Shown here one piece after another: positions 1,007-47,629 of a stretch of DNA of 58,306 nucleotides; position 1 is the first letter of the stretch; the number at the start of each line of letters is the position of its first letter. Both the position numbers and the translations under genes were made by a program. This DNA is from an uncultured Nitrososphaeria archaeon (GTDB taxonomy: Archaea > Thermoproteota > Nitrososphaeria > Geothermarchaeales > JDFR-13): the NCBI GenBank assembly GCA_964529905.1, contig CAZGXJ010000005.1, forward strand, positions 1 through 58,306, given 5' to 3'. Under the pieces are notes generated by a model. It did not search any database. It had not been told where the DNA came from and saw only the letters and a program-made list of their open reading frames with translations.

Positions 1007-1014
1007 TTTATAAA
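1007..1014 (+). promoter_or_regulatory. TATA box (TTTATAAA) predicting a transcription start near 1037
   Basis: Canonical archaeal TATA about 23 nt before the first hairpin of the structured element. Confidence 0.5.
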
Positions 1015-1036
1015 TGTTAACTCGCCTATTTAGTGG

Positions 1037-1357
1037 GATGATCCTACATAGCAAAATATGATGCTATGTAGGTGAACAACCATAGGAATGACGAGACATC
1101 CCTATGGCGAAAAGGGAGAAGGGTAGATAAATACAGAGAAGAAACATTAGCAGAGAAAATGGCGAAGGCATCCCACCGTAGAGGTGGGCCTCCCCAAGAA
1201 TATGGATAGAGAGGCATACCCGATGAACCAACCAATAATTTAAGTAGGCTTTCCATGTGGAGGGGAGAGGCTAAATGATTTAGGGGTCCACATGGGAGGC
1301 CACGGCAAGTATCCACCCATCCCTCCCCTTCCAGCCCCCCTAAAGAAAGTGGGTGGA
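1037..1357 (+). ncRNA. Candidate structured RNA element upstream of and overlapping the LAGLIDADG gene
   Basis: Five stems: 1043-1053/1062-1072 (11 bp), 1080-1086/1101-1107, 1172-1177/1183-1188, 1247-1261/1287-1301 (15 bp, 2 G-U), 1312-1320/1349-1357; locally GC-rich. Confidence 0.5.
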
Positions 1358-2433
1358 AAATATAATAGGGAGATATATCAGGAAGCAAAGGAACTGTACA
1401 ACAAAGGGTACAGTGTTACAAGAATAAGTAGAGATTTTGGTATTCTAATATCTACATTACAGCATTGGCTGAGATATGGTATGGGAGAACATATATACCT
1501 AAACTGAAAAATAGAATATACATTATCGGAATACTATCAAGTGAAACAACTATACAAAGAAGGTTATAACGCATGTGAAATACATGGAAATACTTGGAAT
1601 ACCCAGGATAACAATTAGAAACTGGCTAGCAAGAGGGAAGAGACCTAGAGATACATATTCAGAGACAATAGGAAGGTTCAGTAAATGGATAGAGAAAAAC
1701 CATCCATATAACGATGAATACTATAAGATATTCTATGACCCAACAAAATGGCCATACATAGCCTACCTATACGGAGTAATAATCACCGACGGAACAATAT
1801 TTTATAATATAACATACAAGAGATATGCCATTAGGATAATGGGAGAGAAAATTTTCCTTGAAAGAGTAAACAACATGATCTATAAACTGCTTGGAAGAAG
1901 ATATAGCATTTTCAAAGATAAATTGGGGAATAGATTCATAATAGAAATTACAAGAAAGACATTATGTCAAATAATGAAACTTGGATTACAAAGCATTGAG
2001 CCCTTGATGAATATAATCGGATACAATGAAACAACCAAGAAAGGATTTATTCTTGGAATCGTGGATGGAGATGGGACCTATACTCCAACTGACAACTATG
2101 TTATTATCAAGAAGACAAAACGATGGTGGATAGTATCATATAGTGGATATCTTCTAAAGACATTAGGAGTAAGATATCGATGGATGGTGAACAGGAATGG
2201 AGGTAGGATACGCATCATCAAAAATCGTTATAAAGTAGTTGAAAAGGATAGATTTAGATGGTACTGCAAAGGAAAAGTCTTCATCACAAAGATTGGACCA
2301 ACAATATAGATCACGAAGAGGAAAGGCTTACCAGAAAAAAATTAAAAAGCTGCTCAAAAAAGGTAAAGGATCCATTAAAATAACTTATATACCCCTCCTC
2401 CCTTTTTATCACCACCAAAAAATCTTAAATTAA
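1292..2433 (+). pseudogene. Disrupted free-standing tandem-HTH plus double-motif LAGLIDADG endonuclease
   Basis: HTH1 ELYNKGYSVTRISRDFGI..STLQHW; in-frame TGA 1505-1507; HTH2 QLYKEGYNACEI/MEILGIPRITIRNW split by a frameshift near 1583; motifs YLYGVIITDG and FILGIVDGDG; further break near 2307. Confidence 0.75.
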
Positions 2434-2483: not shown

Positions 2484-2605
2484 TGGTGGGCCCGGCCGGA
2501 TTCGAACCGGCGACCTCTCGCTGGGGGATAACTCTGTCCCCGAGCGGTAGCTTATCAGCCCTACGCATATGGATTGAGCGCGCTACCAGGCTACGCCACG
2601 GGCCC
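2484..2605 (-). tRNA. tRNA-Ile(GAU) with three 15-nt introns (29/30, 37/38, 39/40); CCA encoded
   Basis: Removing 2561-2575, 2538-2552 and 2521-2535 gives a cloverleaf with CTCGG-CT-GAT-AA-CCGAG; each intron forms a full BHB. Confidence 0.92.
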
Positions 2606-3091: not shown

Positions 3092-3740
3092 TGGATTCTT
3101 TCAATGGTACAAATGCTACTGGAAATAATTCCCTCTTAAATATTTTACCTATCCTCTTTTCGATTAGGTATAGTGTTTGGTAGAGTGTATATCCTATTGG
3201 GATCAACATTCTACCATTATCTTTAAGCTGACTTATTAAATATTTGGGAGGTTTTTTGGCTGCGGCCGATACCAAGATCTTATCATAGATCTCGATCTCC
3301 TGTTTAGGCGGCCATCCTAGACTCCCATCTCCATATATAATTGTTACATAGTCTTCGAGACCCGTCTTTTCTATATTTTCCGATGCGAATCTATATAGTG
3401 GATATAAGTATTCTATGGAATATATATGTCCATATCCCCTACCCAATTCAATAATTTTACCTATTAACGCCGCTTGATATCCGCTTCCCGCCCCAATTTC
3501 AAGGACTGAGTCGTTCGGCTGTATATTCAATATTTCTAGATAGTATGCATTCATATGTGGAGCCGATATCGTTTGTCCAGTTTCACCTAATGGAGCCGGC
3601 GAATCTTCATATGCATATTTTTCATATCCTGGCCACATAAAATCTCTTCTATCTATCTCTTGAAATGCTGATATGTAAAGCTTATTCTTTAATATACCAC
3701 TTCTAACCAGTGAATCGACTAGATCCCTATTTGACTTCAT
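3075..3740 (-). CDS. pcm: Protein-L-isoaspartate O-methyltransferase
   Basis: GQTISAPHM, VLEIGAGSGYQAA, GDGS.G, V.FVPL. Confidence 0.93.
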   Translation of the reverse strand: MKSNRDLVDSLVRSGILKNKLYISAFQEIDRRDFMWPGYEKYAYEDSPAPLGETGQTISAPHMNAYYLEILNIQPNDSVLEIGAGSGYQAALIGKIIELGRGYGHIYSIEYLYPLYRFASENIEKTGLEDYVTIIYGDGSLGWPPKQEIEIYDKILVSAAAKKPPKYLISQLKDNGRMLIPIGYTLYQTLYLIEKRIGKIFKRELFPVAFVPLKESNGNED

Positions 3741-47528: not shown

Positions 47529-47629
47529 AGCCCCGGGCGGGATTCGAACCCGCGACCTGCGGCTATCTCGCATGTTCTAGATACAAGGCCGCCGCTATTG
47601 CCTCTCTCTGGCCGCTGAGCTACCGGGGC
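47529..47629 (-). tRNA. tRNA-Thr(UGU) with introns at 22/23 (11 nt) and 37/38 (17 nt); CCA not encoded
   Basis: Removing 47597-47607 and 47565-47581 restores the GCTC/GAGC D-stem and GCGGC-CT-TGT-AA-GCCGC; U73. Confidence 0.9.

Follow-up and report, generated by a model that had tools for sequence, protein, structure and literature searches.

What a long and elaborately folded RNA should do in front of a homing endonuclease gene is the question raised by positions 1,037 to 1,357 of contig CAZGXJ010000005.1 (assembly GCA_964529905.1), from an uncultured Nitrososphaeria archaeon, where an element of about 320 nt stands at the 5' end of a helix-turn-helix (HTH)-LAGLIDADG gene. The window referred to below is the whole stretch analysed, 58,306 nt in length. 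In archaea of this phylum most mRNAs are leaderless, and a long, structured 5' leader is out of the ordinary. The comparisons reported here showed that the leader is an RNA structure of the plus strand, maintained by compensatory change, and that it is a portable module, independent of nuclease chemistry. As to its function, we hold at about even confidence that it is a cis control, which would hold back expression or set its timing and/or make the mRNA more stable, perhaps by forming a ribonucleoprotein (RNP) with the kink-turn (K-turn) protein L7Ae, and that it is not a guide.

Fold of the leader

Five consecutive stems had been placed in this element by the initial annotation, and a script check located every one of them, with arms at 1043-1053/1062-1072 (stem 1), 1080-1086/1101-1107 (stem 2), 1172-1177/1183-1188 (stem 3), 1247-1261/1287-1301 (stem 4) and 1312-1320/1349-1357 (stem 5). 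The stretch 1030-1365 folded at -105.5 kcal/mol (z -4.0) as the plus strand and at -123.1 kcal/mol (z -6.4) as the minus strand; none of 100 dinucleotide shuffles was as good on either strand, so the leader beats the controls against which its folding energy was to be judged. Scans of the window and 17 related loci with Rfam 15 returned no family at or above the gathering threshold for the leader and matched only tRNAs, which bore out the earlier remark that neither rRNA exons nor a group I core could be recognised. At E <= 10 within 900-2500, the best matches, MIR6152 (18.2 bits, threshold 57) and SNORD29 (16 bits, threshold 48), were at chance level. We infer a transcription start near 1035-1038, and the parts of the leader are as follows.

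1008-1015, plus strand: TATA-like box TTTATAAA, read in the sequence as the cassette's own putative promoter.
1036-1076, plus strand: hairpin H1 (stem 1), with flanks GGAUGAU...UGAA, a GAU bulge with tandem G:A/A:G, and a conserved loop (12-copy alignment, covariance models).
1080-1107, plus strand: hairpin H2 (stem 2), from the fold, with cells 100% paired in four copies.
1114-1123, plus strand: G-run GGGAGAAGGG, a possible partner of the stem 5 loop C-run or of the 3' tail C-run (RNAalifold helix).
1172-1214, plus strand: hairpin 3, CCCACC/GGTGGG at 1172-1188, plus a small neighbouring hairpin of CCTC (1189-1192) and GAGG (1211-1214), from the fold.
1219-1246, plus strand: conserved unpaired block CCCGATGAACCAACCAATAATTTAAGTAG with an invariant TTTAAG (invariant alignment columns; unpaired in folds); an internal promoter here is speculation.
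1247-1301, plus strand: hairpin 4, a 15-bp stem whose 3' arm carries the upstream candidate start ATG 1292-1294 (cells 88-91% paired).
1312-1357, plus strand: hairpin 5, whose 3' arm carries the candidate start codon GTG 1349-1351 (fold, alignment).

Conservation and covariation

The 336-nt stretch was present in three copies in its own 719-kb assembly, that of the window (C5) and two others on contigs C16 (76% identical) and C14 (73% identical), all three preceding an HTH-HTH-LAGLIDADG gene. Beyond this assembly, copies turned up in another genome of the genus, on metagenome contigs and in further genera of the same family. Every copy had a promoter-like box ahead of it and an open reading frame (ORF) downstream on the same strand, and in the copies examined the TATA-like box lay 21-34 nt ahead of the GGATGA of stem 1 (distances counted by hand). 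Nine leaders of LAGLIDADG cassettes were gathered, and covariance models of H1 were then used to find copies in other genera.

Collecting the regions upstream of homologous genes had been suggested as a check on the element, and it was found that the leader is conserved there, with covariation in H1 across 12 copies and in both H1 and H2 in a sister genus. In the 12-copy alignment, 97.0% of the 132 cells of H1 were paired and eight of its 11 pairs had changed on both sides, which none of 500 shuffles reached. In the sister genus the sequence of the H1 stem was wholly replaced, whereas GGAUGA on its 5' side, NGA on its 3' side and the loop (about CGAA..GAUG) were retained, and 13 of the 24 pairs of H1 and H2 had changed on both sides (four sequences). 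The plus strand is fixed because H1 has many G-U cells, which the opposite strand would read as A-C, and because the promoter and the ORF are oriented accordingly. Hence the description of the element as a plus-strand, nuclease-associated structured RNA is supported, with the G-U pairs of stem 1 fitting that strand only.

When the five-stem structure was laid on four long leaders, 89.4% of 235 cells were paired, against 36-53% for slid controls. An RNAalifold structure of these four leaders, derived from the same alignment, gave 13 pairs and was matched by one of 500 shuffles; across the two structures, 89-94% of cells were paired. Within this RNAalifold structure the inner part of H2 had four pairs changed on both sides, as had five of the seven pairs of a helix (columns 95-101 with 309-316) that joins the G-run after stem 2 (about 1114-1120) to the C-run in the loop of stem 5 (about 1322-1329). 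The initial annotation had instead paired the loops of stems 4 and 5 with each other. Both complements (GGGGAG 1262-1267 with CTCCCC 1323-1328, and 1279-1286 with 1337-1344) were confirmed at their coordinates by script, but they are weakly kept, with 66.7% and 84.4% of cells paired in the four long leaders, and kissing of the two loops was rejected for want of specific support.

The window is an AT-rich archaeal contig of about 34% GC, and the stems might be thought to arise by chance or from the composition of a patch richer in GC than its AT-rich genome, the more so as both strands fold well and G- and C-runs pair promiscuously. We regard this as very improbable given the compensatory changes in H1 and H2 across genera, the result of the dinucleotide shuffles, and conservation above that of coding sequence: leader identity exceeded coding identity in six of eight pairs, for instance 75% against 64% and 56% between C5 and C16.

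Distribution of the leader and its varied cargo

H1 was found in six of 17 genomes of the order, all belonging to one family and only at such cassettes; under stricter filters, a sample of 150 other genomes of the phylum yielded none. The two H1 models, R1 and R2, matched only at the heads of such cassettes, and the three matches in the archaeon's own genome were all at cassettes. A scan with a 16-nt pattern matched 51 genome and six viral stretches, of which eight genome stretches (archaeal) and all six viral ones were inspected; three of these eight (L046, L065 and L071) were real copies, and the remainder of those inspected were chance matches. One of them, L065, is an extra H1 copy on a contig from a metagenome-assembled genome (MAG) of unknown kinship. 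Here (L065/L081) a near-consensus H1, a leader and an HTH-LAGLIDADG gene lay on a contig binned to a DPANN-type (Nanobdellati) MAG, which may reflect a binning error or transfer between host and episymbiont.

In genome G010, of the same family and another genus, H1 headed an HTH-HTH-LAGLIDADG gene (L085) and an HTH-LAGLIDADG gene (L088), and also three copies of a gene for a protein of 370-390 aa (L090, L091 and L096). This protein had no Pfam hit and scored 31.6 bits against TIGR01766 (cut-off 32) and 25.6 against NF040570 (cut-off 100), and its predicted model in the Atlas gave TM scores of 0.70 to a TnpB-related cluster and 0.83 to an SSO2105_N cluster. It is predicted to be TnpB-related, with its score against a curated model falling just under the cut-off. 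Homologous leaders therefore precede both LAGLIDADG ORFs (L085, L088 and L094) and these TnpB-related ORFs, and leaders of the two types aligned over about 200 nt, comprising H1, H2 followed by ACC, and further long hairpins. They also shared C-N-A-G-like loops (by eye), a G-run of the GGGAGGAGGGG type and an A-rich linker. The occurrence of the same leader type on LAGLIDADG and unrelated TnpB-related genes points to a role independent of the cargo. The leader also appears to be dispensable for the enzyme, because one paralogue (L022) has none and another (L011) has one of only 166 nt.

Two further arrangements were seen among these loci. Directly after the TnpB-related ORF of L090 (2881-3052; contig C63 of G010) is a GC-rich, hairpin-dense stretch ending in GGTGGGATGAACCTAAGG, a second H1-like head, which could be the 3' RNA of that element or the start of a neighbouring unit. 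In L094 (1586-1900; contig C2 of genome G009) and in the leader of L088, successive hairpins with different stems carried a near-identical loop (AAUCAGGUGGUU, four times in L094), and these look like repeated binding modules.

The presence of the same head on the TnpB-related genes of the sister genus also invites a reading at the DNA level, in which the hairpins would form in single-stranded DNA at a transposon end (an IS200/IS605-like left end that the LAGLIDADG cassettes have borrowed) or would serve the HTH domains as an operator. IS200/IS605 ends use strand-specific hairpins that tolerate G-T pairs, and stem 1 is a near-perfect palindrome directly after the promoter. An operator has a precedent in I-TevI, which represses its own promoter in this manner according to an excerpt of PMC2988022. 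An HTH operator would, however, keep its stem sequence, and in the sister genus the H1 stem was replaced by covarying pairs whilst its flanks and loop were kept; moreover, the TnpB-related cargo has no HTH, and an operator for the cassette's own HTH protein was rejected on these two grounds. As for a transposon end, an array of three to six hairpins over 170-450 nt is far longer than known IS ends, no TnpA was among the ORFs listed (no search aimed at TnpA was made), and the C16 cassette has its boundary not at H1 but about 135 nt further upstream than the TATA box. We consider DNA-level hairpins improbable.

The kink-turn-like head

The initial annotation had likened the closing of stem 1 to a K-turn, and this stood in part: the GAU bulge and tandem G:A/A:G are conserved, but no conserved C-helix accompanies them. 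GAU-GA on the 5' side and GA on the 3' side flanked H1 in 11 of 12 aligned copies, the exception being C16 with GG, and position 3n was G in five of 12. Transcription, from its inferred start, may even begin at the bulge. It is our hypothesis that H1 is bound by L7Ae. According to an excerpt of PMC6298567, this protein represses translation by binding, in the leader, K-turns that combine a GAU bulge with tandem G:A pairs, and K-turns of similar make-up occur in archaeal mRNA leaders subject to l7ae autoregulation, as also excerpted from PMC5539422. In leaders of the l7ae type, the K-turn is next to the Shine-Dalgarno site, in a hairpin that is weak unless protein is bound, whereas H1 has an 11-bp stem of high stability at a long distance from the start codon. 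No paper on LAGLIDADG genes was among the literature matches listed on archaeal K-turn leaders.

Box C/D small RNAs (sRNAs) have RUGAUGA, D', C' and CUGA boxes and guides of about 12 nt that are not self-complementary. An archaeal box C/D sRNA was considered for H1 and rejected, for although it has an AUGA...GA core, its two 10-nt spacers are complementary and pair together, the D'/C' equivalents deviate, and no C/D model matched at threshold.

Proposed control of nuclease expression

The cis control proposed at the outset would operate within a transcription unit ordered as the cassette's own TATA-type promoter, the leader, the HTH-HTH-LAGLIDADG endonuclease and a C-rich/oligo-T terminator. 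The leader itself starts with the conserved hairpin and its K-turn-like G:A flanks, runs on as an array of long hairpins and finishes in hairpins containing the candidate starts. Acting in cis on its own transcript, with its first hairpin probably bound by L7Ae, it would hold the expression of a potentially harmful nuclease low and/or protect the 5' end of the mRNA in a hyperthermophile. A thermophilic host is suggested because the tRNAs of the window have 65-77% GC on a contig that is otherwise AT-rich.

In an alignment of ten homologues the conserved part started with (M/V)GGKY, three gene calls beginning with M and the other full-length members with V; at this position the codon was GTG or ATG in the DNA copies read, and ATA in the C14 copy, which is broken. 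GTG 1349 is accordingly the likeliest start, with ATG 1292 as an in-frame alternative, and both are in 3' stem arms. Candidate start codons within stem arms had ensemble unpaired probabilities of 0.00-0.39 (0.00 for ATG 1292 and 0.37 for GTG 1349), and the upstream ATG or GTG in stem 4 was fully paired in C5, C16 and L023 (0.00-0.03). One TnpB-type leader masked its Shine-Dalgarno sequence (0.17 against 0.37 shuffled, 1/25).

Structures of this kind have known counterparts on selfish genes. The translation of homing endonucleases of phage T4 is limited by RNA structures that sequester the ribosome-binding site (RBS), and I-TevI, I-TevII, I-TevIII, segB and mobE have in common with the archaeal genes a stable 5' RNA structure, with candidate start codons lying in stem arms in the archaeal leader as well (PMC2988022, in excerpt); an excerpt of PMC2330249 places segB, too, in a tRNA gene cluster. 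The T4 structures are single short hairpins of a bacterial phage, whereas the archaeal leader is a multi-hairpin array of 170-450 nt with a K-turn-like head, also found before TnpB-related cargo, and masks starts no better than shuffles in nine of ten leaders. The 5' untranslated region (UTR) of IS200 likewise places a mobile-element gene behind a structured leader, with an RBS-sequestering stem-loop and a left-end hairpin that are thought to lower expression; it is bacterial, much shorter and lacks a K-turn-like head.

Several observations weigh against control in cis. Across the region -12..+3 the mean unpaired probability was not below that of shuffled upstream sequence in nine of ten leaders (0.59 against 0.53 in C5), and L023 and L011 were clearly more open than their shuffles. 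For the upstream start, the pairing of the codon was never matched by shuffles in only two of five copies (C5 and L023, 0/20 each), and its -12..+3 region was not below shuffles in any of the five, G3C9 going in the opposite direction. The distance of 170-450 nt between H1 and the start codon is too great for a simple steric block by a bound protein, and inspection of the copies revealed no conserved sequence that could pair with the nucleotides on the 5' side of the bulge to form a C-helix. Covariation of the five-stem structure in the four long leaders was not above shuffles (73/500), and with only about 17 leader copies known, statistics beyond H1 and H2 are weak. Finally, the nuclease gene of the window is dead, and its leader still folds perfectly.

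An intact leader beside a dead gene could hint at an RNA with a function of its own, which would mature into a stable RNP, with L7Ae for example, and act in trans, with the nuclease (as a maturase-like or a scaffold- or guide-like RNA) or in mobility, the ORF being variable cargo. A constant RNA ahead of changing LAGLIDADG and TnpB-related genes fits such a function, as do the better conservation of the leader than the ORF in six of eight pairs, the poor support for start masking, the C/D-box-like K-turn signatures in H1, and a leader (L095) with no nuclease ORF behind it. Against an independent RNA, neither a T5 run nor a TATA box at leaderless distance separates the leader from the ORF (read in the window, by eye in other copies), paralogues work with short leaders or none, LAGLIDADG enzymes are established to need no RNA, and H1-type hairpins occur nowhere in the archaeon's own genome apart from the three cassettes. 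We judge this account unlikely, though not negligibly so. A bolder synthesis, which we offer tentatively and likewise consider unlikely, is that the conserved entity is a family-specific, K-turn-headed hairpin-array RNA that would travel with interchangeable LAGLIDADG and TnpB-related genes as an RNP needed for persistence or mobility, possibly closing on the 3' C-run into a protected or circular ORF RNA.

The nuclease gene and the 3' end of the cassette

The cassette as a whole measures 1.4-1.7 kb and consists of a TATA-like box, the leader (about 255-310 nt), the HTH-HTH-LAGLIDADG gene and a C-rich, T5-bearing tail that resembles a terminator. Downstream of the leader the window reads as follows.

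1349-2385, plus strand: gene for an HTH-HTH-LAGLIDADG homing endonuclease, interrupted by two stop codons (TGA 1505-1507 and TAG 2307-2309), by a frameshift near 1575 and by a probable second one near 2335 (the last from a manual reading of frames).
2392-2407, plus strand: C-run and T5 CCCCTCCTCCCTTTTT, the terminator-like 3' end of the cassette, read in the sequence.
2487-2605, minus strand: intron-bearing tRNA gene, convergent, about 80 nt past the 3' end of the cassette (Rfam RF00005, 46 bits).

The HTH-LAGLIDADG gene noted initially was thus confirmed, although broken in this copy, and the C14 copy is broken as well. The intact paralogue on C16 (L002:1034-2113) encodes 359 aa from its longest ATG and 342 aa from the conserved start, and matched Pfam LAGLIDADG_3 (PF14528, E 6.7e-9) and several HTH families. 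Two LAGLIDADG motifs with acidic residues, YLYG..TDG and LG..DGDG, were invariant in ten homologues, as expected of a double-motif monomeric LAGLIDADG homing endonuclease, which the protein is predicted to be. Its closest solved relatives are archaeal, PI-PfuI (1dq3, E 1.4e-5) and the I-DmoI chimera 1mow. The protein family is tiny, with ten members at E <= 1e-3 among 5.8 billion proteins, and in a sample of 301 genomes of the class it was present in five, which all belong to a single family; a search of genome contigs with a single nuclease protein found no related locus. Decay of the window's gene looks recent and strain-specific, because a contig of a related strain in DNA run X3 has A at 1505 (TGA to AGA) and one base fewer at 1588; the first difference coincides with the stop codon of the window's gene, and the second is close to the frameshift there.

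A C-run followed by T5 came directly after the stop codon in eight of the ten LAGLIDADG tails printed, and these eight are complementary to the G-run of the leader. This raises the idea of an ORF-bearing intron-like or circularising RNA, in which the leader G-run would pair with the 3' C-run for processing by the splicing endonuclease or for end protection. The leader-tail duplex beat shuffled tails in L019 (0/200) and C14 (2/200), and in five of seven cassettes its best site was the G-run after the leader's first hairpins. Yet in five of the seven the duplex was not above shuffles, the cognate tail was the best partner for only two of seven leaders, and the cassette interrupts no host gene and has its own promoter. 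No bulge-helix-bulge (BHB) motif was identified, without a formal BHB scan, and no Rfam intron family matched; a group I or archaeal BHB intron with a LAGLIDADG ORF was rejected, as no intron model matched and the flanks are intergenic, with a DUF123 gene on one side and a tRNA gene on the other. Archaeal rRNA and group I introns with LAGLIDADG ORFs (for instance I-DmoI), and GIR1 before I-DirI, likewise join such an ORF to a structured RNA, whereas the cassette is free-standing beside tRNA genes, with its own promoter and terminator and without exons or a match to an intron or GIR1 model. We think an intron-like or circular RNA quite improbable.

Insertion beside tRNA genes

Most cassettes adjoin tRNA genes. 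A convergent tRNA gene lay about 40-180 nt from the 3' end of the cassette in C5, C14, L022, L023 and L088, and no tRNA was detected near the TnpB-type loci in an Rfam scan of those loci. The C16 cassette is bracketed by a perfect 26-nt direct repeat (L018:1798-1823 and 3479-3504, at a distance of 1681 nt). The repeat is identical to the 5' end of the tRNA gene next to it and marks the footprint of an insertion there. Together with the three copies in the genome, it lends support to the earlier suggestion of a mobile RNA/LAGLIDADG unit. In three DNA runs no contig joined across the cassette, hence no empty site was seen. The full tRNA copy beside the C16 cassette starts with A and the orphan fragment with G, which leaves an A1-C72 mismatch in the acceptor stem.

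The C5 locus is old: a metagenome contig (L019) with an intact nuclease gene has the DUF123 neighbour as well and is about 67% identical overall at the nucleotide level. This neighbour, directly upstream of the cassette at 549-974 on the plus strand and also present in the orthologous L019, encodes a DUF123 protein (Pfam PF01986, E 8e-19), a family that we take to be GIY-YIG-like nucleases. In L018 and L023, from two species of the genus, the cassette is found in one and the same intergenic region, which has a tRNA cluster on one side and a PUA-domain gene on the other, but in opposite orientation; the two nuclease proteins are 44% identical, and the arrangement suggests repeated invasion or inversion at one site. 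The tRNA genes of the window at 2487-2605 and 47529-47629, both on the minus strand, have long or multiple insertions (119 and 101 nt) and were found by Rfam and missed by ARAGORN. Nothing on free-standing archaeal LAGLIDADG cassettes at tRNA genes was among the literature matches listed.

Comparison with RNA-guided nuclease systems

HEARO/IscB omega-RNA (RF02033) and TnpB omega-RNA are likewise large structured RNAs beside or overlapping the start of a mobile nuclease gene, and the TnpB-related cargo of the sister genus recalls the TnpB systems; TnpB omega-RNAs themselves lie at the 3' end. The initial annotation had drawn the analogy with HEARO and OMEGA RNAs and raised a guide role as speculation, and neither found support. 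LAGLIDADG enzymes read DNA by protein and need no RNA, one paralogue is leaderless, the 166-nt leader of L011 is short, and TnpB-related genes are carried too. In C16 the likely transcript start is about 135 nt inside the boundary defined by the repeat; because the RNA would start inside the element in this way, the leader should carry no guide derived from the flank, in contrast to HEARO and omega-RNAs. A HEARO/IscB omega-RNA, which belongs with an IscB nuclease (RuvC+HNH) and has its guide at the 5' end beside the element boundary, was also rejected on the grounds that RF02033 did not match, that the cargo is mostly LAGLIDADG and that the C16 boundary is upstream of the promoter. Among other known RNAs, a fragment of RNase P, signal recognition particle RNA or rRNA was rejected, as no model matched and similarity within the archaeon's own genome was limited to the three cassette copies. 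A conserved upstream small ORF was rejected as well, reading frames diverging after five codons between copies.

Significance

A covarying leader is thus common to two unrelated kinds of selfish nuclease gene, and its conservation equals or exceeds that of the sequences coding for the nucleases. Should the leader limit or time nuclease expression, it would show how archaeal genomes coexist with parasites of the homing and transposon types at high temperature, and would also constitute a natural K-turn-headed regulatory module. If the RNA instead has a role of its own, it would represent a new archaeal class of mobile RNA-plus-nuclease unit beside tRNA genes. In either case, the position at tRNA genes and the 26-nt tRNA-derived repeat in one cassette allow a direct test of whether free-standing homing endonucleases of archaea target tRNA genes.

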